From assembly GCA_041690355.1 (NCBI GenBank), contig JAWLHK010000004.1, positions 62,001-126,000 on the forward strand: a DNA stretch of 64,000 nt, in the 5' to 3' direction. Position 1 is the first letter of the stretch. The number at the start of each line of letters is the position of its first letter. This DNA comes from a bacterium (GTDB lineage: Bacteria > J088 > JAWLBW01). Below are positions 5,689-47,483 of this stretch, piece by piece. Both the position numbers and the translations under genes were made by a program. A model generated the notes under the pieces. That model did not search any database and was not told the DNA's origin. It saw nothing but the letters and a program-made list of their open reading frames with translations.

Positions 5689-6207
5689 TTGTCGCTGGCA
5701 AGCGATCTGGGCGGTTTCGCCTTGCTTCCGCTGGCGGCAGGTCTGCTGACGCTGCAGAGCGATCGGCCGGGAGGAACGCTGCTCATCGTGGGCGAGAGCG
5801 TGGTCACGACCGCGCTGCTGAACCAGGCCGTCAAGTTCGGCGTCGGCCGCTCGCGCCCCTACGCGCGGAACGGAAACGATGCCGGCGTGGATCCGAAGAA
5901 GGGGGACGATCACCTCTCGTTCTTCTCGGGGCATACGGCGGTGAGCTTCAGCCTGGCGACCGCGACCTGGGGCTGGATGCACGCAGAAGGTTCCCCACAT
6001 GCGCCGTGGGCGGGAGGCGCGCTGCTCGCGGGAGCCGCCTTCGTCGGCTACTCGCGCATCGCCGCTGACCGTCACTATCTGACCGATGTGCTGACGGGCG
6101 CCGTCATCGGTTCGGCCGTGGGCTGGCTGACCGTCAAGATGCACCGGGCACCCGCGGGGGGAACGTCCGAGGTTCCCGCCGGCGTCGCGCTGACGTGGCG
6201 GCTGTAG
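5689..6207 (+). CDS. PAP2-family phosphatase, possibly N-terminally truncated
   Basis: KFGVGRSRP, SFFSGHT and SRIAADRHYLTDV PAP2 motifs; nearest plausible start is TTG at 5689 with no clear RBS. Confidence 0.7.
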   Translation: MSLASDLGGFALLPLAAGLLTLQSDRPGGTLLIVGESVVTTALLNQAVKFGVGRSRPYARNGNDAGVDPKKGDDHLSFFSGHTAVSFSLATATWGWMHAEGSPHAPWAGGALLAGAAFVGYSRIAADRHYLTDVLTGAVIGSAVGWLTVKMHRAPAGGTSEVPAGVALTWRL

Positions 6208-6230
6208 AGTTTACGGGGGGTGCGCCAATA

Positions 6231-6884
6231 TCAGGGGACGATGGCCGGCGGGGGTTCCGTCGGCCGCTCGCCGAAGTTGCGCGCATAGGCTTCGCCGATC
6301 CGCGTCACGAGGAGCAGCGCCGCCACGGCGAGGCCGACGTCGACGGCATCAGACAGCGCGTACACGATGGCGGAGCTCGCATACGCCGAAGCATCCTCCG
6401 CGGCCAGCACGAGCTTCACCGCCGCGCGCCCCACGACCGTCGAGAGGATCCAGAGCGTCCACCAGGCGCTGAGGAGCCCCGGCGACGCCGCTGGATCGCG
6501 ATGGCTCACCTGCCAGATCTCCTGCATGGCCTGATACGGCTTCACGAGGTTGGCGATGGGGACGAAGTACCACCCGACGGCCCACCCCGGCGTGAACCGC
6601 ATGGCCTGCCCCGACAGCGCGCCCAGGTTCTGGTTGCTGCGGTAGATCCAGCGCAGAAACGTGATGCCCGTGGCGAGACCAAGCAGCACCTGTACGCCGC
6701 CCACGGCGAGCGAAACGAGGTCGGCCGGAAGCATCGTCTCGTTCGGATCGAGCCCTGGGGGAAGGTTCGCGTAGGTGTGGTACTCGAACAGGCCCGCGGG
6801 GATGGCCGCCGCCGTCACCACGATGGTCGCCTGCAGGAGAAACCGGAGGGTCTGCGTCAGATCGGCATGGGATTTCAGCTGCAT
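6231..6884 (-). CDS. DUF4328-like membrane protein
   Basis: FLRWIYRSNQN...FTPGWAVGWYFVPIANLVKPYQAMQEIW signature. Confidence 0.8.
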   Translation of the reverse strand: MQLKSHADLTQTLRFLLQATIVVTAAAIPAGLFEYHTYANLPPGLDPNETMLPADLVSLAVGGVQVLLGLATGITFLRWIYRSNQNLGALSGQAMRFTPGWAVGWYFVPIANLVKPYQAMQEIWQVSHRDPAASPGLLSAWWTLWILSTVVGRAAVKLVLAAEDASAYASSAIVYALSDAVDVGLAVAALLLVTRIGEAYARNFGERPTEPPPAIVP

Positions 6885-6977
6885 GGGGATTCCTCGCCTT
6901 TCAGTCCCTCAGCATATCGTATCGCTATGCATACGGGCAAGCGGGAAGATTCGCGGGCATATAGGCGCGGCGGGCGC

Positions 6978-7379
6978 TTACTCACTTTCGGTCATTCCGG
7001 CAAAACGGAGCAGGTCCTTCCAGAAGACACCGCACAGGGGTGCGGTTACGAGTAATCGGATCCAGGTCGAGCAGAACGTATATTTCGAACCGATACCAAA
7101 GGACGTCAGGTCCAGAATACCGATAATTGCAATGCCTACCAGGAAGTCATAGGCAGAAAGTCTGAATCGCCGATCATGAGCATTGCTGAAAAGCTTCACG
7201 AAAAAGTACCCGAACGGCAGTGCGAGAAAAACATATGCAAACGGGACTTCGCACGTTGAGAAACCAGGCTTCATCAGCGCGCTCGCGACGTCCAGGACGA
7301 GTAGATATGTCCATCCAAGGATGAATGGGACCGCGATACGCCTGAATTCCCGGTCGATGATGTCGTCGGGTGAGGACAC
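6978..7379 (-). CDS. Hypothetical multi-TM membrane protein, low GC
   Basis: 133-aa ORF with about four hydrophobic segments; GTG start just after the DUF3999 stop. Confidence 0.45.
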   Translation of the reverse strand: MSSPDDIIDREFRRIAVPFILGWTYLLVLDVASALMKPGFSTCEVPFAYVFLALPFGYFFVKLFSNAHDRRFRLSAYDFLVGIAIIGILDLTSFGIGSKYTFCSTWIRLLVTAPLCGVFWKDLLRFAGMTESE

Positions 7380-7387
7380 AGCTTAGT

Positions 7388-8797
7388 TTAACTGGCCTTC
7401 TCCGATTCCTGCAGTTCCCCGTACAGCCGCCAGGCCATCCAGGCGACGGCGAGAACGATGAGGATCAGGAGCGACCAGAGGGCGGCCTGTTTCCAGAGCG
7501 GAACCGCGGGCCTCGGGCGCAGCAGGTCTTCGCCGCCGAGCACCATGGCCGATTTCAACTCGGCGCGCCCGGGCGCAGGCGCCCTCTCGATCCCCCTTTC
7601 GCGCAACATCCGCTCGAAGTGCTCGAGGCCGCCGGGGCGGCGATCGATGTCGGCGCGCCCGTAGGCGAGCGTGAACGGCCCCGTGCCGCGCGGCAGAAAG
7701 ATCATGCGGTGAGGCACCCAGCCGAACGCGACCGGCGGAAGCGCGGCGCCCCCCGACTCGATGCGGATGCGCCAGTGGCGGTGCGGCACGGCCGGAAACG
7801 TGACGGTGTCTTCCTCGAGCCCGCCGGGGGCGAAGCGGGCGCGATACACCGTGCCGCGGGCCCGCGCCTGCCACGACGTCTCCGGGTCTGCACGGGACTC
7901 GACGACGAGGCGAAGGAGCATGTTCTCCTCCAGCGCCACACGGACCCGGTCGATCGGATACGAGCCGTCGAACGCGAACTCGAAGCTGCGTTCGGCCTCG
8001 CCGGCCCGGGCGGGAGCCGTGAGCCACCGCGGCTCGGCGCGGCTGCGGGCGTGGCTGCGGCCGATCACCTCGCGCACGGTGATGCGGGGCGACCCCGGGT
8101 CGAGCACCCGCAGGCGAAGATAGCGCACGCCGAGCCCGTGCAGCGGGACGGAGTCGCGGATCAGCGCTTCGCCCTGAAAGGAAAGGCGCGCCAGGTTCCA
8201 CACCGGATGCACCGTGCGCCAGGACTGCAGATCGGGGCTGCTCTCGACGGCCACCCGAAGCAGCGCCTCGGCCGCACTCGTCGCCGATGCGGGCGCGGTC
8301 CAGTCGAGCCGGATCTCGGAGACCGGCGCATGCGTTTCGCCCAGATCGACGAGCAGGCTCTGCCCTTGGGAAACGGGTTCCTGTCCGGGCGACCCACCCG
8401 GCGGTTCGGCGCCGATATAGCGGAATGAGACCGCGCCCCCCGCCGCCCGCAGCTCGACCAATGCCGAGTCGCCGCTCGCGGAACCGCCGAGGATCGGATA
8501 CTGACGGAAGGCGACCGTGACGTCGGTCGTCACGTCGGCCCACGGCTTGTGCTCGAGCCTGAAGGGGAGCAGTTCGCCGACGGCGTTGAAAACCGCGACG
8601 TCGCGCAGATCGGGCCAGACCACGGCGCGGTAGACCTCGGGCGGAATGTCGGCCCCCCAGGTGGCGTACGTGCCGGGGGCGCCCATGCCGACGCCGTACG
8701 CGAAGTCATCGGGACCCAGGCCCCCCGTGTCGGCGCGGGCGGCGGGGGGAGCCAGGAGCGGAAGCAGAAGGAGAATCCATGCGGGAAGACGCATCAC
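7388..8797 (-). CDS. DUF3999-family protein
   Basis: Signal peptide, DLRDVAVFNAVGELLPF, GPFTLAYG, C-terminal TM (ALWSLLILIVLAVAWMAWRL); follows a DUF2339 gene. Confidence 0.8.
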   Translation of the reverse strand: MMRLPAWILLLLPLLAPPAARADTGGLGPDDFAYGVGMGAPGTYATWGADIPPEVYRAVVWPDLRDVAVFNAVGELLPFRLEHKPWADVTTDVTVAFRQYPILGGSASGDSALVELRAAGGAVSFRYIGAEPPGGSPGQEPVSQGQSLLVDLGETHAPVSEIRLDWTAPASATSAAEALLRVAVESSPDLQSWRTVHPVWNLARLSFQGEALIRDSVPLHGLGVRYLRLRVLDPGSPRITVREVIGRSHARSRAEPRWLTAPARAGEAERSFEFAFDGSYPIDRVRVALEENMLLRLVVESRADPETSWQARARGTVYRARFAPGGLEEDTVTFPAVPHRHWRIRIESGGAALPPVAFGWVPHRMIFLPRGTGPFTLAYGRADIDRRPGGLEHFERMLRERGIERAPAPGRAELKSAMVLGGEDLLRPRPAVPLWKQAALWSLLILIVLAVAWMAWRLYGELQESEKAS

Positions 8798-34067: not shown

Positions 34068-34171
34068 TCGTCGGGTAGGCGTACGGAATGAACCTCGGTA
34101 ACTTCGTCGGCAACGGATTCAGCTGATTGCCGCCGAGGAAGGAGGCACTGCCGCTGCACCATCCCTGGGGG

Positions 34172-34263
34172 CTCTAACGGCTGGGCGAGTTGCGGTGGCG
34201 CCAGCCTTCACTTGGTTATACCATGCGCGCCGTTTCGCCATCCGCAAGATCGCCTTGTTAGGC
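34172..34263 (-). other. attC site (orphan)
   Basis: On -: GCCTAAC-AAGGC-GATCTTGC...GCAACTC-GCCCAGCC-GTTAGAG; clearly related to the attC at 43003-43091. Confidence 0.8.
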
Positions 34264-35410: not shown

Positions 35411-38400
35411 CTACTGCCGTTCGTACGGGCCAAGGTCTACGGTGGTATAGACAATGCGGGGATTCCCGTCCAGGTCGACCGGCAGCCACGAGGCCAACAA
35501 GGCATTGTCACCGTTGTTGAGGGCGGCAGAGCCCGCCTGCAGGCGGAAGTTGCCCCCATTCGGATCGACGAAAAGCGGGTCGCCGTTAGACACGCGTGTA
35601 CAGTTGACGATCTCCGAATAGTAGGTCCAGATGTTTCCGCCCACCTTGCAGCCGGCTTCCATGATCGAATCGATGAAGTACAGCTCGTTCCCCTCAGAGT
35701 CCCAGCCGTTTCCGCCGATGTTATCCCGTTCACTATCCCACGTAGCGGTGTTTCCCCACAGGATCGAATTCTGGAATACAAAGATGTGGTCCACGGGGTT
35801 GAGGTTGAGCCCAATACCGCCGTCGTATCTTGCGGTGTTCCGGGCTACGGTCACATTCGTAAACGTGGGATCGCTGCGGTATACGCGCATGCCCCCGCCA
35901 ACGTCTGCCTGATTGTTGACGACAAGCACGTTGAGCATCGTGACATCCCCAAAATAAATATTGATTCCGCCGCCGTCGCTGTCTGACGTATTGCCGTCGA
36001 ACACAGTGTTCACGATCAACGGAGCACCGGCCGCCAACATGCCGCCGCCCCTCATAGACGCCGAGTTACCGGTGAACGTCACCACATCCAACTGCGGTTC
36101 TGTATTGGAGCCAGTGACCATCCCTCCTCCGTCCGCACCGGATGAGTTATTACTGAAGGTAACGACCCATAGCAACGGATTGGAGCCGATGCCAAGATTA
36201 TATAGTCCCCCCCCGGAACCGGTCGCGGCGTTGGCAAAAAACGTAACACGCGTGAGTTCCGCGTCGCTACCGTCCATGTTGCTCATCCCCCCGCCGGGGC
36301 CGCCCGAAGTGTTCTCGTTGAACTCGACGTCGGTGAGCCTGGCGGCTTCGCTTTGCCCGGAGGCGGTCGTCAAATAGAGCCCTCCGCCATGGGCGCCGGC
36401 GTAGTTGGTTGTAAACGTCGTACCGGAGAGGTACACGGCACCTGAAGCGTACATCCCCCCGCCGTAGGCGGCCGTGTTATCGACGATCTCGAGCGAGAGA
36501 AGCCGTGCTTCGGAATCCGTGAGGAGGAGGCCGCCTCCGCGCCCTTCGTTCGCTGCCCCGTCGGCCTTGCCGCCGGTGATCGTGAAGCCGTCGAGCACAG
36601 CCGTCGAATCGGCGCCGGCTGCCGTGACGACGTGGTAGCTGCGCGACTGCCCGTCGGCCAGGATCCCCGACAAAGTGGTCAAATGGGTATCGGGGTCGCG
36701 TTGGCTTCGATTCGTCTCGGTTCCCTGAAAACCGCCGTAGACCTTGACGCCGCTCTTCAGCGCAAAGCTTGCGAAACGGTCCGTTCCGTCGCTTGGGGTG
36801 TACGTGCCTTCGGCGACCCAGATTTCGTCACCGGGCGTGCTCACCTGCATCGCATCCGCAAGGCTGGCGAAAGCTTCGGACCACGACAGGCCTGTTTCCG
36901 GATCGGCCGATTGATCGGGATCGACAAGGATTACGCGGCTCCCGCTCGTACGCGAATAGACCAGCGCCCGTGCACTCGCCCCGCCCTCAACCGTAGCATA
37001 GACGCGGCCAAGACCGACAATACCCGTCGTCACTTCGGCTTCATGCAAACCGGTGGCGGCCACGCTCACGACGGTCTCCCGATCGCTCACCCAGGAGTCT
37101 ACCGGCACGGGTGCGCGGTACTCGCCCCAGGTCGTAGCGGTCACCGTGGCCGTGCTGCCGCCGTTGGCCAAGCGAAATGCCGATGGCGAAAGCGTAACGC
37201 CCGGATCGACGGTGACCCAGGAGACGGCGCCGCTGAACTGACCCTGCAAGGCCGGTGACATTCGCGTCGTGTCGGTGATTGCCGTGCCCATGCCCTGGCG
37301 AAACGCCCAGGCGGCGGCCAAATCGTCGCGATTGGGGTGGTCATCCAGAACCTCCGTATGGCGCCAGGCATCGAGCGTGCCGGCCGTCAATGCCGTACTC
37401 CAGACGCGTACATCGTCGAGCGCTCCGTCGAAATACTGATTGTCATAGCCGAGACCGATGCGGAAGTCGCGTCCATCGGGAACGGCATGGGGCGCCGCCG
37501 GTGTATCGGACGCCACTTCGACGCCATCGAGAAAGAGGCGCCGCTCGATTCCATCCCAACTCGTGGCGACATGGTGCCAGCCGTCGGTGAGATTCACCTC
37601 AGGCGAAGCGAGCGTCGCCCCCCACCAAGAGGTCGAGAGGCCGGTTGACGTCAGTCGAAAGGCAATCGCTTCGTTCGCCGTGCCATAGTTTCCCCAGGCG
37701 GCGATCCCCAGAAGGCCCATGGTATCCGGGCGTATCCACGCCTCCACCGTGTAGGGCTGCCCATTGGCGGGCATGGAGACTTGGGTCGAAAAGGTCTGGG
37801 TCGGAAACGTAACGTGCCCGGAACTTCCGTCGAACTCGAGGGCGTAGTTGGTGCAGGCAATCCAGGCCCAGGCGGGTCGGCCCTGCAGCACGTCTTCTCC
37901 CCCGTGCACGCGGCAACTGCGGCCTGGAATGCCCGGCTGAGACGCGACGGTCACGGCGTAGGCGCTGCCGTCTTCGATCTCCATCGGAAACTCGTAGGTA
38001 CCGTTGGCGTCGACTTGCAGCTCATCGCTGCCCAGGTTGCGAAGGACGACCGTGCCGGAAGTCAGTCCGGAAACGGTGACGGCAACGGGAAACTCTTCCG
38101 TCACGCAGTGGAGGTGGAGCGTAGCGGCCTTGCCGTCCAGTAAACCGGTCGGCCAATCGAGGGTGCAGGTTTGCAGAGGGGAGGAAGGCTGTGCGACAAC
38201 GTCCACGGCGTAGGTGTGTAGATCCGGCAATGCGGAGGCGAAAATGTGCGTGCCGTTGCCATCGATGGCAAGATCGTCGCTCCCATTGTTCAAGAGGAGA
38301 AGGCCGTCGCCCAACAGCCCGGTCACGACGACTTCGATGGGATACTGGTTCGTGACGCAGTCGACGCGAACGTCCACATCGGCCGAGACGGTTCCCGACG

Positions 38401-38914
38401 TCTCCTCCACCGTACAAGTCTGATTGGGATACACGGGCTGGGCGGCCACGGCGACTTCCCACGTTTCTCCGTACGCCACGGGGGTTGGGAATTGGAACTT
38501 GCCGTCCCCGTCGGCGGTGCGTTCAACGCCGTCTTGGTTCCGCAGGAGCAAGCCGATGCCTTGCAAGCCGGAGACCGTACCGCCAAGGGTAAAGGTTTGC
38601 TTCGTGAATCGAGCCTCGACCTCGCAGTTCTCGTGGACGGGCGCCGTCGTGTAGACGTTGCCGTCGAGCGTACCGTCACACCCCTCGACGAAGTCGACGC
38701 GGTAGCCCTCGTCGGGCGTCACCGTGAATTCTGCGGTTTCGCCGTCCGTCACCCCCAGGCTTGCCGGTCCGACGGAGCCCCCTTGCCCGGCCGTGGCGGT
38801 GACGGTCCACTGAACCGCTCCGTTGCGGCGGGCAGGTTTGTCGTCGGAGGAACAACCAGCGACGAGGATGGCGGCAAGGGAAACCACACGCAGGGAATGA
38901 ATGAGTTTCGGCAT
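35411..38914 (-). CDS. Large surface lipoprotein, paralog of 22867-26400
   Basis: Start MPKLIHS at 38914; LVAGC lipobox; same domain order; ends PRIVYTTVDLGPYERQ. Confidence 0.85.
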   Translation of the reverse strand: MPKLIHSLRVVSLAAILVAGCSSDDKPARRNGAVQWTVTATAGQGGSVGPASLGVTDGETAEFTVTPDEGYRVDFVEGCDGTLDGNVYTTAPVHENCEVEARFTKQTFTLGGTVSGLQGIGLLLRNQDGVERTADGDGKFQFPTPVAYGETWEVAVAAQPVYPNQTCTVEETSGTVSADVDVRVDCVTNQYPIEVVVTGLLGDGLLLLNNGSDDLAIDGNGTHIFASALPDLHTYAVDVVAQPSSPLQTCTLDWPTGLLDGKAATLHLHCVTEEFPVAVTVSGLTSGTVVLRNLGSDELQVDANGTYEFPMEIEDGSAYAVTVASQPGIPGRSCRVHGGEDVLQGRPAWAWIACTNYALEFDGSSGHVTFPTQTFSTQVSMPANGQPYTVEAWIRPDTMGLLGIAAWGNYGTANEAIAFRLTSTGLSTSWWGATLASPEVNLTDGWHHVATSWDGIERRLFLDGVEVASDTPAAPHAVPDGRDFRIGLGYDNQYFDGALDDVRVWSTALTAGTLDAWRHTEVLDDHPNRDDLAAAWAFRQGMGTAITDTTRMSPALQGQFSGAVSWVTVDPGVTLSPSAFRLANGGSTATVTATTWGEYRAPVPVDSWVSDRETVVSVAATGLHEAEVTTGIVGLGRVYATVEGGASARALVYSRTSGSRVILVDPDQSADPETGLSWSEAFASLADAMQVSTPGDEIWVAEGTYTPSDGTDRFASFALKSGVKVYGGFQGTETNRSQRDPDTHLTTLSGILADGQSRSYHVVTAAGADSTAVLDGFTITGGKADGAANEGRGGGLLLTDSEARLLSLEIVDNTAAYGGGMYASGAVYLSGTTFTTNYAGAHGGGLYLTTASGQSEAARLTDVEFNENTSGGPGGGMSNMDGSDAELTRVTFFANAATGSGGGLYNLGIGSNPLLWVVTFSNNSSGADGGGMVTGSNTEPQLDVVTFTGNSASMRGGGMLAAGAPLIVNTVFDGNTSDSDGGGINIYFGDVTMLNVLVVNNQADVGGGMRVYRSDPTFTNVTVARNTARYDGGIGLNLNPVDHIFVFQNSILWGNTATWDSERDNIGGNGWDSEGNELYFIDSIMEAGCKVGGNIWTYYSEIVNCTRVSNGDPLFVDPNGGNFRLQAGSAALNNGDNALLASWLPVDLDGNPRIVYTTVDLGPYERQ

Positions 38915-39145
38915 GTTTTTCCGGCAAGGCGAGGAGGTTCGATGGATCCGTTCGCATTTCCAGCATGCCCACAGGAGAGAGCCAGCGGCTATGAAGAGGG
39001 CTTTGCGGACGGTACGCAAATGTCAACGTCCGCATTTTAGCCGAATCGGCCGATTCTCGCGGGCCCTAAATAGGGGGGGGCGGGGGGGGCAGACTGCCCT
39101 CAATCCATAGTGGACGGCAGTCGAACTGGAGAAGCGCCCGATGAG

Positions 39146-39753: not shown

Positions 39754-39849
39754 GCCCAACGTACATGCCTGAGCGGGCAAGGCCCAGGAAATGCATATAG
39801 CCTACCAAAGATCGCTTCGGGCCGCAGTCCGCTCGAGGCGTTGTTAGAC
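39754..39849 (-). other. attC site
   Basis: On -: GTCTAAC...GCCT(C)GAGCGG/CCGCTCAGGC stem with an extra C...GTTGGGC; the gene stop TAA lies inside R''. Confidence 0.85.
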
Positions 39850-40404
39850 CCGGGCAGGGACTTCAAAATGCCGCCCTCTATACCAACATTGAAGAAAGGC
39901 TGGGTCTATCCGAAGTGATAGTGACTTAGCATCCGACGTCTCGAGGATCTTCCAGTCGGAGGAGCCAGACCATTTGACCGACGAGATTCGAGCGTTTTCA
40001 ACTAACACATGAAAATTGTGCCCGCACTTCTTGCACTTTGGATAAATCATTTGCCCATCGGGCCATGAGAATTCTGTTGTAGCAAGCATCTGAGTTATCG
40101 AATTCACCGCTGAACAATTCGGGCAGTGGAGCCCAAGCCAAGTTGTTTGAATTGGGCGCGAAGGTGTCTCGTCTTCCTTTGTTTGAGAGATCGTGTCGAT
40201 GTCCGAAGGATCAAAAGGAATATTCGTTTGCCCCTCGATTCCTAAGATCTCGTCAGGGTAAACAATGAGTATGCGATAGGTTTCGCCGTTTTTCAGGCGT
40301 ATCGAAGCAATTGACGTGTCTTGGTGAAACTCATCCAATCCCCCGGGTGGAAGAAGCGAAGCAGGAATTCTAAGTTCGCGAAAATCGTCAGAGAGAAACC
40401 ACAT
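39844..40404 (-). CDS. Hypothetical cassette protein with CxxC...CxxC
   Basis: 186 aa, low GC, CPNC and CKKC motifs, bounded by attC sites. Confidence 0.75.
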   Translation of the reverse strand: MWFLSDDFRELRIPASLLPPGGLDEFHQDTSIASIRLKNGETYRILIVYPDEILGIEGQTNIPFDPSDIDTISQTKEDETPSRPIQTTWLGLHCPNCSAVNSITQMLATTEFSWPDGQMIYPKCKKCGHNFHVLVENARISSVKWSGSSDWKILETSDAKSLSLRIDPAFLQCWYRGRHFEVPARV

Positions 40405-40481
40405 TGGACAAGAACTCGGATGGGGGGATGTGCGCTTGTGCTCGGCGAACCGTTCCCATAATTGGGGAAGAGGTATGTTCG

Positions 40482-40564
40482 GTCTAACGAATAGGTTTTA
40501 TCCGCCGGCCGAGTGCACGGGTAGTTGTCTCATTCGCGTCCCGGTGGATAAAAGCCCGTTGGAC
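40482..40564 (-). other. attC-like site at the transposase-distal end of the IS91-like element
   Basis: On -: GTCCAAC-G-GGCTTTTATCCACCGG...CCGGCGGATAAAACC-TATTC-GTTAGAC. Confidence 0.75.
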
Positions 40565-40809
40565 GTAACCGCGTACAGCAGAGCCGTAAGAGGAAGCGTA
40601 CCCCCTTCTATGGGGATTGTAAAGCTGAGGCACCTGGGCAAGCGAGTGCCGTGGATGGTTCACGCGGGAGTACTGGACGGCTGGGTAGATTCCTGTTCTG
40701 CAATGGAGTCAATCTGTGCCTCTGATTTTCGCAAAATTCGTCGGTTGTATAGATCTTGCCGTCGCGCCTTTTGCGCGGTCAATGCCAGTCACCCGGTTGG
40801 CTGTCGAGT

Positions 40810-42036
40810 TCATGAGGAATCGCAGTATCCTGCCCGCGCGTTTGCCACCTGACGCCCCCAGGAAGGAAGCAGGAGGACGATCAGCATCGTGCCCTGGCGA
40901 CATCGCTCACACTGGCCGGGCTCGCGGCCTGTAATCTTACGGATGAGGTCTTCTTCGGATGTTGCCCTCTCTGTCGAATTCGGCTGCTTTCCAAGAAGGG
41001 CGCGACACGTCGCAATCTTGGTTTCTTTGGTGCGATTGGCGAAAAGGCCATAATGTCGGATGCGCTGAAACCCCTTGGGGAGCGCATGCAGGAGAAAACG
41101 TCGTAAGAATTCGTCAGCTGGAAGCGTCATGCTTGCCTTGCGATCGCCCTGCTTCCGGTCGCGATAGGAGAATGTGACCGTCTTGTCGCCGATGTGACGA
41201 ATTCGTTCATTCGAGATGGCGACGCGATGGGTGTATCGGCCCAAGTAGCGGAGTACATGCTCTGGTTTGGAGAAGGGCTCTTTGGCGTAGACGACCCATG
41301 GCTTAGCGCGGAGCGTCCGGATCAGGTTTCGGAAAGCAGCTTCTGACGCGTAGACTGCGCTGCGGCCGGGAAATGCCAGCTTGCACTGCTTATATGCAGA
41401 CAGAAGATGGGTGAGATATTTGCCGCGAAAGACCTTGCCGAGCGCTTTGACGGGAAACAAATAGTTGGGTCTTGCGTCCGTCCACGCCTGCCCATCCTCA
41501 GATAGCGCGCCGGCAGGGACAAGGCAATGTAGATGATGATGATCGCCCAGGGTCTGATTCCAGGTGTGCAGGACGGCGAGCACGCCTACCGTACCACCGA
41601 GATGGTTCTTTCCAAAAAGGAGCAAGGTCTCCGAGACGGCACGAAAAAGCATGTTCAGGAGGACCTGCTTATTTACGCAAATCAGCGGATTTAGAGCATG
41701 CGGCAAAGTAAAGACGACATGGAAGTAACCGACCGGCAGGAGCTCTGCCTGGCGCGCTGCAAGCCACCTCTCACGAGGTAAGGCCTGACACTTCGGACAA
41801 TGTCGGTTGCGACAGGAGTTGTAGGCGACGACCTCGTACCCGCATCGATCGCACTGCTCGACGTGGCCGCCCAGCTTCGCTGTCCGGCACTGCTTGACTG
41901 CGCGCAACACTTTGCGCTGATCGCGCCCGAGAGGACGAGAGTTCTCAAGGTCGGCGCCGAAGCGGCGAACGATATCTGCAAGTTCGTGGCGAGGTCTTTC
42001 TGGCTTCCTTGTCGCTCCATGCTCGTGGAGCGACAT
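40810..42036 (-). CDS. IS91-family (Y2 HUH) transposase
   Basis: Zn region CRT..LGG...CDRC...YNSCRNRHCPKC; LHTW...HLHC HUH motif; YLGRY. Confidence 0.92.
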   Translation of the reverse strand: MSLHEHGATRKPERPRHELADIVRRFGADLENSRPLGRDQRKVLRAVKQCRTAKLGGHVEQCDRCGYEVVAYNSCRNRHCPKCQALPRERWLAARQAELLPVGYFHVVFTLPHALNPLICVNKQVLLNMLFRAVSETLLLFGKNHLGGTVGVLAVLHTWNQTLGDHHHLHCLVPAGALSEDGQAWTDARPNYLFPVKALGKVFRGKYLTHLLSAYKQCKLAFPGRSAVYASEAAFRNLIRTLRAKPWVVYAKEPFSKPEHVLRYLGRYTHRVAISNERIRHIGDKTVTFSYRDRKQGDRKASMTLPADEFLRRFLLHALPKGFQRIRHYGLFANRTKETKIATCRALLGKQPNSTERATSEEDLIRKITGREPGQCERCRQGTMLIVLLLPSWGRQVANARAGYCDSS

Positions 42037-42038
42037 GG

Positions 42039-42872
42039 CTACGCCATTCCCGCAAGAAGGTCGTCCTGTCCATGGCGGCGCTGTTGCCGCACCTGGAGGT
42101 AGACTTGTGTCGTAAGCAGCGATGTGTGCCCCAGATAGGTCTGTATCGTCCGCAGGTCGACACCCGCCTCTAACAAATGGGTCGCGAAGCAGTGGCGTAG
42201 CGTGTGGATGCCGCGACCACGTTGGAGCTTTGCCTTTCGCCGTGCAGCTTCGTACGCACGTTGGATGGCCGTATCCGATACGGGGCTACCCTGATCGCGA
42301 CCCGGAAAAAGCCAGGTCTCCGGACGATGCAAGCGCCAATAAGTGCGCAGCGTTGCCAGAAGACTGGGTGTCAGCAACGTATAGCGGTCCTTCGCGCCCT
42401 TGCCAAGTTCGACGCGGACCTGCATGCGGTCGCTATCGATGTCCTGGCAGCGCAAATGGGTGAGTTCCTGCAAACGTAAACCCGTTCCGTAGGCCGTCAT
42501 GAGCATCGTGCGGTATTTGCCCGGCCGGCAGGCGGCGAATAAACGCGTCACTTCTTCTCGACTCAGGACTTCGGGCAGTCGTTTAGCTGAACGACGCTCT
42601 GGAAGGACAAAGCTGGCCTCTGGATTCTTGAGGACGTGCACGTATAGAAAGCGCATGGCTGCAGCGGCTTGGTTTACCGAGCTCCATGCGAGCTTTCGTT
42701 CTGTCGTGAGAAAGTGAAGGTACGCCTGTGCTTCGTCATGGCTGATGTGCTCCGGTGAGCGGTGGTAGTGCTTTGCCATCTGGGCGATGGCCGACACATA
42801 GGCTTCGCGGGTCCGAGGAGAAAAACGCCGTAACTCCATCAGCGCGATCATGCGCTTGCGAAGTGGGGTCAT
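42039..42872 (-). CDS. Tyrosine recombinase of the IS91-like element
   Basis: TGLR, GKGAKDR, HTLRH, LGH, TQVY: full R-K-H-R-H-Y set. Confidence 0.92.
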   Translation of the reverse strand: MTPLRKRMIALMELRRFSPRTREAYVSAIAQMAKHYHRSPEHISHDEAQAYLHFLTTERKLAWSSVNQAAAAMRFLYVHVLKNPEASFVLPERRSAKRLPEVLSREEVTRLFAACRPGKYRTMLMTAYGTGLRLQELTHLRCQDIDSDRMQVRVELGKGAKDRYTLLTPSLLATLRTYWRLHRPETWLFPGRDQGSPVSDTAIQRAYEAARRKAKLQRGRGIHTLRHCFATHLLEAGVDLRTIQTYLGHTSLLTTQVYLQVRQQRRHGQDDLLAGMA

Positions 42873-43002
42873 GAATGCCTCCTTAACCTTGGTTATCGCA
42901 GGTGCAGCCTGCGGGAGTCATTCTATTTCGGGAGGAGCGGACCGAGGAAAAACAATCAACAAAAAAGAGGGCACATGCCCCCTCTACCGCGATAGCGGTT
43001 TC

Positions 43003-43091
43003 GTTCAACGTCTGGGCGATTAGCGGTGGCCCATCTTCACATAGTTATACCATACTGCATTTTCGCCATCCGCTAGATCGCCGTGTTAGAC
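43003..43091 (-). other. attC site
   Basis: On -: GTCTAAC-ACGGC-GATCTAGC...GCTAATC-GCCCAGAC-GTTGAAC; L'' carries the extra C. Confidence 0.85.
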
Positions 43092-43110
43092 CAATCGTGT
43101 CTTACTGGCC

Positions 43111-43527
43111 CTACTCTAAACCTGCGGCTCCCTTCTTTAACGAATAAAGATGGCCAAAGAAAGATACCGCCGTAATTACTAAAAAGTAGGCGGTCTCCTT
43201 GCCAAAACCGAAATGAAGAAAACCACCTACCCAGAAGAGCAGGGCTCCAATAGCCCACAAAACTTCAAGCGAAGGCTTAAGTCTGCCTGCAGCGATGAAG
43301 ATTGCGAAAACACCACCGGACGTTATCAAATAATACAACGCAGTCGAAGCAACGATAAGACTCACGGGGAACTTTAACAGGGCCGGAATACCAAAACCAA
43401 AAATGGACTTCGAATAAGCAACGAGAACGATAAAGAGTGCGAAGCTGTCCCATAAACGAGCGGCCAGGATGACTTTCGTAGGATGGGGATTAGTATTAGG
43501 TCGCATTTTTTCAGTGTTCATGGTCAA
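43111..43527 (-). CDS. Hypothetical 4-TM cassette protein
   Basis: 138 aa, AT-rich, ends 19 nt before an attC. Confidence 0.7.
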   Translation of the reverse strand: MTMNTEKMRPNTNPHPTKVILAARLWDSFALFIVLVAYSKSIFGFGIPALLKFPVSLIVASTALYYLITSGGVFAIFIAAGRLKPSLEVLWAIGALLFWVGGFLHFGFGKETAYFLVITAVSFFGHLYSLKKGAAGLE

Positions 43528-45025: not shown

Positions 45026-45060
45026 GTCTAACTACTGTTTATGCCCCCGAAATGCCGGAT
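45026..45060 (-). other. Probable attI site
   Basis: On -: ccggcatttcgggggcataaacagta-GTTAGAC, upstream of and divergent from intI, at the GC-content transition. Confidence 0.65.
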
Positions 45061-45127: not shown

Positions 45128-45174
45128 GAGAGGAGATTAGGCCCCCGAATACACGATCCCTTATATCCCAGATG

Positions 45175-46154
45175 ATGACGGAACACAAACCGGAACCGCG
45201 CCTGCTCGATCGGGTGCGGGAGTCCATCCGCCTGCGGCACTACAGCCTGCGTACCGAAGAAGCCTACGTGCACTGGATTCGACGCTTCATCCTGTACCAT
45301 GGCAAACGCCACCCGGCCGAGATGGGGCACGAAGAGGTGCGGGCGTTTCTTTCCTACCTCGCGCAGGAACGCACCGTGTCGGCCTCGACCCAGAACCAGG
45401 CCCTGGCCGCCCTGCTCTTTCTCTACGGAAAGGTTCTGGAACGCCCCCTCGAAGAGCTGCGAGAGGTCGAACGGGCAAAGCGCCGGTCGCGCGTCCCCGA
45501 GGTGTTCACGCCCGACGAGGCCCGCCGCGTTCTCGCCCACCTGCAGGGGACCCACTGGCTCATGGCCTCGCTCCTGTACGGATCCGGCCTGCGGCTGCTC
45601 GAGTGCCTGCGGCTGCGCGTCAAGGATGTCGACTTCGGCTATCGGCAACTCACCGTGCGCGACGGAAAAGGGGGCAAGGACCGCGTCACCATGCTCCCCG
45701 GCTCGCTCGAAGAGCCGCTGCGGCGCCAGATCGAGCACGCCGCCGCCCTTCACGCGCAGGACCTGCGCGAGGGATACGGGAGCGTCTACCTTCCCGATGC
45801 GCTCGCCCGGAAGTTTCCGCGCGCCGCGAGCGAGCTCGGCTGGCAATACCTGTTCCCCTCGGCGAAACGCTCGCGCGACCCGCGCAGCGGCCTCGAGCGC
45901 AGGCATCACCTCGACGAGAAGACCCTGCAGCGCGCCGTGCACGCCGCCATCCGCGCCGCCGGCGTACGCAAACATGCCTCCTGCCACACCTTCCGTCACT
46001 CCTTCGCCACGCACCTGCTGCAGGCCGGTTATGACATCCGCACGGTGCAGGATCTTCTCGGCCACCGCGACGTCAAGATGACCATGGTGTCACCCATGCG
46101 CTGCAGGCGGGCGCCTTCGGCGTGAAGAGCCCGGTGGACGGCCTCCTGGGTTGA
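45175..46154 (+). pseudogene. intI: Integron integrase, frameshifted at the catalytic Tyr
   Basis: [39 protein letters not shown], IntI-specific insert [14 protein letters not shown]...WQYLFP...[28 protein letters not shown] at 46087-46097 lacks the A of TAC. Confidence 0.9.
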
Positions 46155-46810: not shown

Positions 46811-47245
46811 TCACCGACCCTGAAGCGGATTCAGCCACCGAAGGTCTGGAAATTTCGCGAAATCCCGGTCCGTGCTGACCCACTCGGCACCGAGTTCAAT
46901 GGCGAGTGCGGCGTGGTGGGCATCGGCGACGAGCTTGTCGCGGGCGTTCAGTTTGCGACAGAGATCCGTAAAAACAGACCAGTGACGCGCCCCGGCTCTG
47001 AGGGGGCGGGCGTTCGGAGTTGCAACCAGGGAGTCGCAGAAGGCAAGGGCGCTCGTGGTGGTATCCGGTTGCTTGAAGATGCGCTTGCTGGTGACGATGC
47101 GGACAAAGCCGCTCAGCACCAGTTCAGAAATTCCGAACGGCTCGGTTGCTTGGCGCGTCGACTCGAAAAGCTCGCCGCAGCGGTCGTGATGTTCCAGATC
47201 CGGCCGATAAGCGTGAACCAGGACATTGAGGTCAACAGCGCGCGT
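46811..47245 (-). CDS. vapC: VapC PIN toxin whose expected start codon reads ACG (possible pseudogene)
   Basis: RAVDLNVLVHAYR, FVRIVT, LVADAHHAALAIE, STDRDFAKF, WLNPL. Confidence 0.75.
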   Translation of the reverse strand, partial: TRAVDLNVLVHAYRPDLEHHDRCGELFESTRQATEPFGISELVLSGFVRIVTSKRIFKQPDTTTSALAFCDSLVATPNARPLRAGARHWSVFTDLCRKLNARDKLVADAHHAALAIELGAEWVSTDRDFAKFPDLRWLNPLQGR

Positions 47246-47483
47246 CGTCGATATCCAGGTCGTGAAGCAGCTCGGACGTACTGTCGAGTTGAACACCGGG
47301 TTGCAGGCCGCCGCGGCAACGCGAAACCGGAAGCGGCGGTGGCGCCGGGCGGATTCTCACGCCCGGGTGAAGGTAGTCACGCAGAGCAGCCTCGATAATG
47401 GCCGTGACGGTGCGCCCCGATTCGGCAGCCACTTTCCTGGCCTCGCGAATCAATGCATCGTTCAAGTTGAGCGTCGTCTTCAT
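47232..47483 (-). CDS. vapB: VapB-type antitoxin
   Basis: MKTTLNLNDALIREARKVAAESGRTVTAIIEAALR. Confidence 0.85.
   Translation of the reverse strand: MKTTLNLNDALIREARKVAAESGRTVTAIIEAALRDYLHPGVRIRPAPPPLPVSRCRGGLQPGVQLDSTSELLHDLDIDDARC

Follow-up and report, generated by a model that had tools for sequence, protein, structure and literature searches.

A recombinase-transposase element with integron cassette borders, probably integrated by its own recombinase

How does an element with a transposase gene come to lie in an integron cassette array without breaking either of the recombination sites next to it? The question is raised by a 64,000-nt stretch of bacterial DNA (GenBank assembly GCA_041690355.1, contig JAWLHK010000004.1, positions 62,001 to 126,000 of the forward strand), here called the window and numbered from its first base, in which a tyrosine recombinase gene and an IS91-family transposase gene are found in an array downstream of an integron integrase gene (intI), flanked by the preceding cassette's attC and a hairpin of the attC type. 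An initial annotation of this DNA had interpreted the gene pair as a selfish cassette that carries its own attC and inserts at GTT crossover points, an interpretation that is partly supported by the present analysis. The construction, placement and ends proposed for it are supported, and the further suggestions, that the element makes its own single-stranded substrate and might mobilise neighbouring cassettes, are conjectural. The element is a member of a widespread family of about 2.5 kb that combines a recombinase sister to the integron integrase IntI, an IS91-type Y2 HUH transposase and conserved ends, and from our point of view it is on balance probable that it represents a self-mobile, cassette-like element that is integrated by its own recombinase.

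Ends, attC-like site and recombinase of the element

Both genes of the element are intact and lie on the minus strand, as do all further features described below unless stated otherwise. The recombinase (42039-42872, 277 aa) matches the Pfam family Phage_integrase (1.4e-35) as well as SAM_4 and has the complete set of catalytic residues (R133, K158, H223, R226, H249 and Y258). The transposase (40810-42036, 408 aa) matches Y2_Tnp (PF04986; 8.6e-61) and Zn_Tnp_IS91 (PF14319), scores 437 bits with the NCBIfam IS91 model NF033538 (cut-off 125) and shows the zinc-finger cysteines, the HUH motif HHHLHCLV, RYLGRYTHR and YxxxY. Together with the folds of the neighbouring sites, these domains and motifs confirm the initial description of an intact recombinase and an intact Y2 transposase in array orientation between two attC-type hairpins.

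One genome per species was scanned with an alignment of 33 recombinases, which yielded 80 loci from many phyla. The transposase gene is directly downstream of the recombinase gene in 79 of them, the remaining locus stopping at a contig edge. The recombinase has thousands of relatives, none with more than 58% identity and many on contigs of 2.2-3.1 kb. The left end of the family reads x|TTGAACTAAACCGC, followed by a small palindrome, with at most two mismatches in 74 of the 80 loci and with G as the base x in 70, and the right repeat GCGGTTCAGTCCAAC is present with at most three mismatches in 55 of the 68 loci with enough sequence. Past the right repeat, 1-5 nt lead into a stem (commonly GTTTATCCGCCG), the two strands of which enclose a loop of 6-85 nt; about 6-7 nt (commonly GCTATTC) and a G complete the end, and the crossover falls after this G. 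This last base is G in 54 of 55 loci, and it is followed by TT in 49 and by TTRRRY in 20, compared with 1 in 256 for random letters.

One genome contains nine copies of the element at nine places, all of which read exactly TTGAAC...TTCTTCG. In six of these copies the G is not followed by TT, which assigns the TT to the left end and the G to the right end, and transposase-type borders of the form GAAC...GTT were rejected for the same reason. The element borders x|TT...G| are those of an integron cassette. In the window, the borders obtained from 56 related loci and from the nine copies delimit a unit TTGAAC...G of 2521 nt (40488-43008; family median 2541 nt), which is the only copy within its genome. 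Like a cassette, the unit has G|TT at both borders and a recombination site at its 3' end, and its place is in an array behind attI. No target duplication surrounds it and the attC sites are unbroken, as had been noted before. The flank alignment of the relatives further places the true ends at G|TT, in agreement with the initial proposal, and not at the ori-like motif described below.

The terminal inverted repeats of 15 bp that had been reported for the window are present as GTTGGACGTAACCGC (40558-40572) and GCGGTTTCGTTCAAC (42995-43009), which are complementary at 13 of 15 positions. Such a repeat is unremarkable if taken alone, as it is not among the 25 longest of the 34 inverted pairs in 40400-43200, and it stands above chance because the same repeats occupy the same places in the relatives, at the frequencies given above. 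The left terminal repeat TTGAACGAAACCGC (42995-43008) forms, together with G 43009, the R'-type box GTTGAAC. This box had been assigned to the attC of the upstream cassette; it does exist, but TTGAAC is the element's own end and only the G belongs to the upstream site. The right terminal repeat GCGGTTACGTCCAAC (40558-40572) contributes its outer 7 nt, GTCCAAC, as the R''-type box of the downstream site, as had been proposed.

Two further motifs accompany the ends. A subterminal palindrome, ACCGC-GATA-GCGGT (42986-42999, read on the plus strand of the window and thus on the element's bottom strand), is kept in a 70-locus alignment of left ends; past it come TTC, GTTC and, at the very end, AA. 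At the other end, the oriIS-like motif of the initial annotation was found as ACAATCCCCATAG (40608-40620; reverse complement CTATGGGGATTGT), 190 nt past the transposase stop and 36 nt inside the inner edge of the right repeat, and it is kept as CTTACAATCCCCATAG in a 57-locus alignment of right ends. The nearest plasmid-borne transposases (47-49% identity) are found in rhizobia, likewise behind an integrase gene, and these elements, which lie outside integrons, have matching terminal repeats (GGATTGAACGAAGCCGC), a hairpin directly past the right repeat and the CCCCATAG motif. In the rhizobial relatives L003 (2013-4530) and L005 (2003-4515; L numbers denote individual loci), the ends are of a variant form (GGATTGAAC ... 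hairpin ... AGATTCCC) and the crossover may be G|ATT instead of G|TT.

The attC-like site of the window element (40482-40564) consists of the R'' box GTCCAAC, a stem, a loop of 34 nt, the complementary stem, TATTC and G|TTAGAC, its bases 40482-40487 being part of the next cassette. The R boxes are inverted at the ends of the site (GTCCAAC ... GTTAGAC in the window, with GTCCAAC or GTTCAAC as R'' in the family). That this hairpin is the element's own, as had been suggested, is borne out by the relatives, with which it travels. We aligned 49 such sites, leaving out L017 and L083 (long loops), L049 and L059 (right end broken or interrupted), L024 and L033 (cut by a contig end) and the duplicates L035, L042, L055 and L072. 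In this alignment, 89.2% of the hairpin cells are paired, compared with 76.7% in shuffles, and changes on both sides are seen in 105 cells, compared with 29.8 +/- 4.5 in shuffles (0 of 500 reached the observed value) and 13-34 in controls with slid partners. Compensatory changes occur in 11 of the 14 stem pairs, so that the structure rather than the sequence is kept. Extra bases are located in either arm or in none, the window site having one.

The pairing also differs between the two strands. When the right repeat was paired with G plus the left repeat as in the joined form (57 loci, 15 positions), 746 Watson-Crick, 89 C.A, 4 G.T and 16 other pairs were counted, and since C.A on the top strand equals G.T on the bottom strand, the mispairs of the repeats are almost all of the bottom-strand G.T type. 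The bottom strand folds better in 36 of the 49 integrated sites (median difference 1.3 kcal/mol) and likewise in the window (40482-40564), where the bottom (+) strand reaches -17.4 kcal/mol (z -2.4) and the other strand -12.3 kcal/mol (z -0.3). From this strand bias, together with the covariation of the stems and the variable length of the loop, we infer that the folded bottom strand is the substrate of recombination.

Among curated models, the window recombinase best matches that of the integron integrases (199.9 bits), below the cut-off of 265 and followed by XerA (171.9 bits) and XerC (152.9 bits). The recombinase copies of relatives found when genomes were searched for integron integrases match the integron-integrase profile at positions 4-181 and 237-314 only, leaving positions ~182-236, the IntI insertion, unmatched. 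In a tree of 33 family members, nine IntI, two host Xer proteins and one outgroup, the sampling of which is thin, the family and IntI form separate clades (support 99/98 and 100/100) that are joined with a support of 98/90, apart from Xer. The element recombinase is, as such, sister to IntI and no member of it, and it does not have the IntI insertion. This grouping agrees with 10.1101/542381, in the available part of which recombinases of IS91 and IS3 elements are named as the closest homologues of IntI and as lacking its insertion.

Insertion sites and copies outside integrons

Near the left end, intI is found in 15 of the 60 loci with at least 600 nt of left flank, either as a gene (eight loci, with divergent orientation in seven of them, including the window) or as a remnant (seven loci). 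An integron integrase with 48-63% identity to that of the window is located 130-375 nt before the left end and in divergent orientation in L024, L026, L029, L041, L063 and L084, and upstream in the same orientation as the element in L050. In L007, L008, L020, L032, L037, L053 and L078 only a remnant, mostly the N-terminal part of intI, is present, which hints at a link between the elements and the truncation of the integrase.

Two loci connect the family with class 1 integrons. The left flank of L032 matches the attI1 site of class 1 integrons in at least 5000 plasmid records (~87%; matches obtained with blastn and none with megablast) up to AAACAAAGTT, and it is at AAACAAAGTT, the attI1-type crossover, that the element and three different first cassettes diverge. 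The E. coli plasmid NZ_AP018145.1, the only record with this element in the plasmid collection searched, has the gene pair in a class 1 integron, flanked by aac(6')-IIa and aadA4. The left junction, ...GGTG|TTGAAC, falls at the G|TT in the attC of the first cassette, and the right one, ...GATCG|TTAGGC, precedes aadA4. The plasmid is of the IncC type and comes from a human E. coli isolate, the element (L118) occupying positions 5868-8447.

A clear attC-type R'' box 40-150 nt upstream of the element is present only in the window, in L054 and in L027, and most left flanks look like attI-type simple sites. Of the initial claim of insertion at attC, the G|TT crossover hence stands, but most relatives are found at attI-type simple sites or at half-palindromic pseudo-sites. 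The right flanks start with TTAGGC, TTGGGC, TTAGAC and similar hexamers, and no IS91-type tetranucleotide (GTTC, CTTG or GTCC) was seen in them. In the genome with nine copies, the targets resemble GCATAA-N5-x|TTATGC, with a good half-site on one side of the crossover and a poor one opposite. An inverted half-site placed 6 nt ahead of the crossover scores 2.58 of 6 matches over 57 sites, a value reached by 17 of 2000 shuffles, and most other offsets give 1.3-1.7 (2.14 at offset 7). In L079 (~6025-6060) and L071 (~5857-5890), the hairpin of the element is partly repeated directly past the right end, and the flank TTCAAG is common to three loci.

The genomes of L034, L038 and L055 carry nine, about four and about three copies of the recombinase, respectively, and a search of them for integron integrases yielded none above the cut-off of the model. 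The nine copies of one genome, the transposase frames of which were compared, differ by small indels that are possibly read errors. The genome of L082 has a second copy of the element 440 nt from an intact intI.

Several loci could represent recombination products. A 23-nt junction string from L019 was matched in 15 metagenome contigs, and the contig ends of L100 and L019 overlap by 55 and 121 nt, resulting in units of about 2.46 kb. Head-to-tail pairs of copies are present in L096, L101 and L094 (80%, 91% and 96% identical), and in L105 the site of the element occurs a second time, in front of the full element. L103 contains a gene-less copy of 426 nt (409-834) with both repeats, the CCCCATAG motif and the hairpin; this miniature, which immediately follows the site of another copy, resembles a non-autonomous derivative. 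In L104 (1586-2100), a 14-nt left repeat precedes an unrelated small gene right after an attC-like end, which may be a chimeric cassette.

Mechanism, alternatives and significance

The borders, the crossover shared with attI1 and the two half-sites argue for a tyrosine recombinase as the integrating enzyme, and since copies occur in genomes where no IntI was found, this would be the element's own enzyme. The moving unit would be TTGAAC...G, with an attC-like site (R''-type box, stem, variable loop, stem, spacer and G) as its 3' end. Once the ends are joined, the 15-nt terminal repeats could pair and thereby lengthen the hairpin at its base. The element's recombinase would then exchange one strand, the bottom strand, between the folded site and a target with x|TT. 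Conceivable targets are the attI of an integron, the R' box of an attC (the case of the window), a half-palindromic pseudo-site and the attC-like site that a further copy provides. Replication would resolve the product as in the attI x attC recombination by IntI. The transposase would have no role in the choice of the target and would most likely nick at the CCCCATAG motif and copy the element or its excised circle by rolling circle replication, which would free the bottom strand as a single-stranded circle in which the site can fold. In the window, the element would have entered at G|TTAGAC of the attC at 43009-43091, which stayed whole, and its own site would have become the border to the next cassette.

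A number of points weigh against this explanation. We infer both the acting enzyme, from computational evidence, and the supply of the single strand by the transposase, the latter being the weakest step of the mechanism. The ori-like motif sits inside the right repeat; rolling circle replication of an integrated copy would therefore leave the hairpin behind, and a circular or tandem template would be needed. Overlapping contig ends can arise from tandem copies as well as from circles, and the three genomes in which no IntI was found are metagenome bins that may be incomplete. All loci of the family share ancestry, so the counts and p-values refer to events that are not independent. The right repeat has more than three mismatches in 13 of the 68 loci, of which six with four mismatches look real by eye and seven are unresolved, and L049 and L059 were set aside although they carry the right repeat. 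Canonical attC sites have two extrahelical bases, which the family does not conserve, and the two positions at which the repeats differ could mark the ends for proteins instead of forming G.T pairs. Finally, the left end, read on the bottom strand, resembles the terIS of IS91 elements and would also suit a pathway of the transposase alone.

This last pathway, rolling-circle transposition of the IS91 type by the Y2 transposase, would turn the hairpin and the repeats into oriIS and terIS palindromes and leave the recombinase an accessory role, for example in the resolution of multimers or cointegrates. The transposase is indeed intact and conserved. The accessible text of PMC13181058 describes terIS of the IS91 family as a palindrome next to GTTC, which the left end matches in sequence only, and reports that IS91 relatives insert without duplication beside GTTC, CTTG or GTCC at the ori end and form single- and double-stranded circles. 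The distance of the ori-like motif from the gene is also similar to that of the IS91 oriIS, reported 167 bp past the gene in the part of PMC5737581 available. The targets, however, follow the consensus G|TTRRRY with an inverted half-site 6 nt upstream, unlike GTTC or CTTG, and the crossover is that of attI1; borders resulting from cleavage after GTTC fail in six of the nine copies; and the hairpin, although located beyond the ori-like motif, accompanies the element throughout, no ori-ter junction without a hairpin having been found in 117 loci. On this evidence, we regard transposition by the transposase alone as unlikely. A plain IS91 element that hit a target attC was rejected as the origin of the hairpin, as the hairpin accompanies nine copies to nine sites. 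That an IS91 element merely landed between two attC sites, the overlap of repeats and R boxes being meaningless, is in line with the unexceptional 13/15 repeat, but the recurrence of repeats, hairpin and borders in dozens of loci of many phyla, also outside integrons, refutes such a coincidence and makes it extremely improbable.

The gene pair could also be a passive cassette, once provided with an attC and mobilised by the integron integrases of its hosts alone, with its own proteins otherwise employed or idle. In the window as well as in the class 1 integron it is placed exactly like a cassette, several loci have it at attI beside intI, and the right flanks that fit TTRRRY (20 of 55) fit the integron core. 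We nevertheless find this rather doubtful, given that nine copies occupy nine non-integron sites in a genome in which no integron integrase was detected and that two more multi-copy genomes are of this kind. In addition, the left end is conserved for at least 15 nt past the core, unlike in ordinary cassettes, 79 of 80 loci retain both genes and the IntI of the window is out of frame.

Beyond integration by the element's own recombinase, one could speculate, with some but limited confidence, that the elements are free-living relatives of the integron recombination module, the integron being the domesticated or the element the escaped form. The transposase would then make a single-stranded circle, the folded junction of the ends would act as attC and the IntI-like recombinase would paste it at G|TT. 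If true, new attC sites and cassettes could arise from copies that have lost their genes or have left a site behind.

With integron cassettes, the element shares the G|TT borders, a single folded site at the 3' end with RYYYAAC/GTTRRRY boxes, paired stems and a variable loop, the better fold of the bottom strand, insertion at attI or attC and a recombinase related as sister to IntI. It differs from them in having its own recombinase, without the IntI insertion, and an HUH transposase, in a conserved left end that pairs with the right end over 15 nt, in the lack of conserved extrahelical bases and in its multiplication where no integron integrase was found. By the classical definition, members of the IS91 family lack terminal inverted repeats, and a two-gene IS91 form with an upstream integrase is listed in insertion sequence (IS) catalogues. 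The element has in common with IS91 and ISCR elements the Y2 HUH transposase with a zinc-binding N-terminus, the lack of a target duplication, a motif conserved past the gene and, at the upstream end, the sequence of a palindrome with GTTC, whereas its family-wide 15-nt terminal inverted repeats, its target G|TTRRRY and the attC-like hairpin beyond the ori-like motif set it apart. IS1111-attC elements and group IIC-attC introns, with a DEDD transposase and a reverse transcriptase, respectively, insert inside attC and are thus likewise mobile in integron recombination sites, but the present element adds a unit with its own site and leaves attC uninterrupted. In CTX-type phages, XerCD joins a folded single strand to the double-stranded dif by one strand exchange and replication resolves the product; the enzymes there are those of the host, whereas the element encodes a recombinase beside an enzyme that could make the single strand. 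The single-stranded integration of CTX-type phages is mentioned in the accessible part of PMC9345347.

Two questions about integrons are open, namely where attC and IntI originated and how cassettes reach the single-stranded form. By uniting the sister recombinase of IntI, an attC-like site and an enzyme whose relatives make single-stranded circles, the family bears on both of them. It also represents a class of integron parasites that occupy attI and attC, often beside a truncated intI and in at least one clinical class 1 integron. In full-text searches of the literature, which covered neither IS catalogues nor supplements, we found no description of the conserved site, the borders or the strand bias; Figure S2 of PMC9229058 may show such a structure. 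In the part of PMC12772301 available, attC sites are said to have been seen at the end of ISCR28, with data not shown.

The resident integron and neighbouring features

The region from 39 to 46 kb of the window has a G+C content of 46-58%, compared with ~60-74% in the remaining window. The cassette array is on the minus strand, and a hairpin scan of the window placed attC-type hairpins at 43003-43091, 40482-40564 and 39754-39849, none of which matched a strict attC sequence pattern. The attC of the preceding cassette (43009-43091) starts with the R'' box GTCTAAC (43085-43091) and has G 43009 as its last base, its R' box being completed by the TTGAAC of the element. Both of its strands form a hairpin (z -2.2 and -2.9), in which the R''-side arm has two extra bases, like canonical attC sites. 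The cassette following the element (39754-40404) consists of an open reading frame (39844-40404, 186 aa, no family match) and its attC (39754-39849).

The integron integrase gene intI (45172-46154, plus strand) scores 449 bits with the integron-integrase model, covering only positions 1-296 of 315, and its product is 55% identical to IntI1 across 305 residues. The frame is lost at the expected catalytic tyrosine codon, near 46088, and the remainder of the protein continues in another frame past this codon, in agreement with the initial view that the resident IntI appears dead; the frame loss could be a real inactivation or an assembly error. This intI is the only integron integrase among the six tyrosine recombinase genes of this genome. 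A putative attI core, GTTAGAC (45026-45032, minus strand), was assigned by position and sequence alone, 140 nt before the start of intI, and attC scans and folding resolved no cassettes between it and 43091.

A copy of the upstream attC (83% identical) is present at 34171-34263, the similarity ending at the crossover. It lies 5.5 kb past the last recognised cassette, so that the array may extend further or the site may be stray, and the interval contains the gene of a 1202-aa protein (35411-39019) and a LuxR-type regulator. On the other side of the array, just past intI, a VapC-type PIN toxin gene is located at 46811-47296 (NCBIfam, 122.7 bits).

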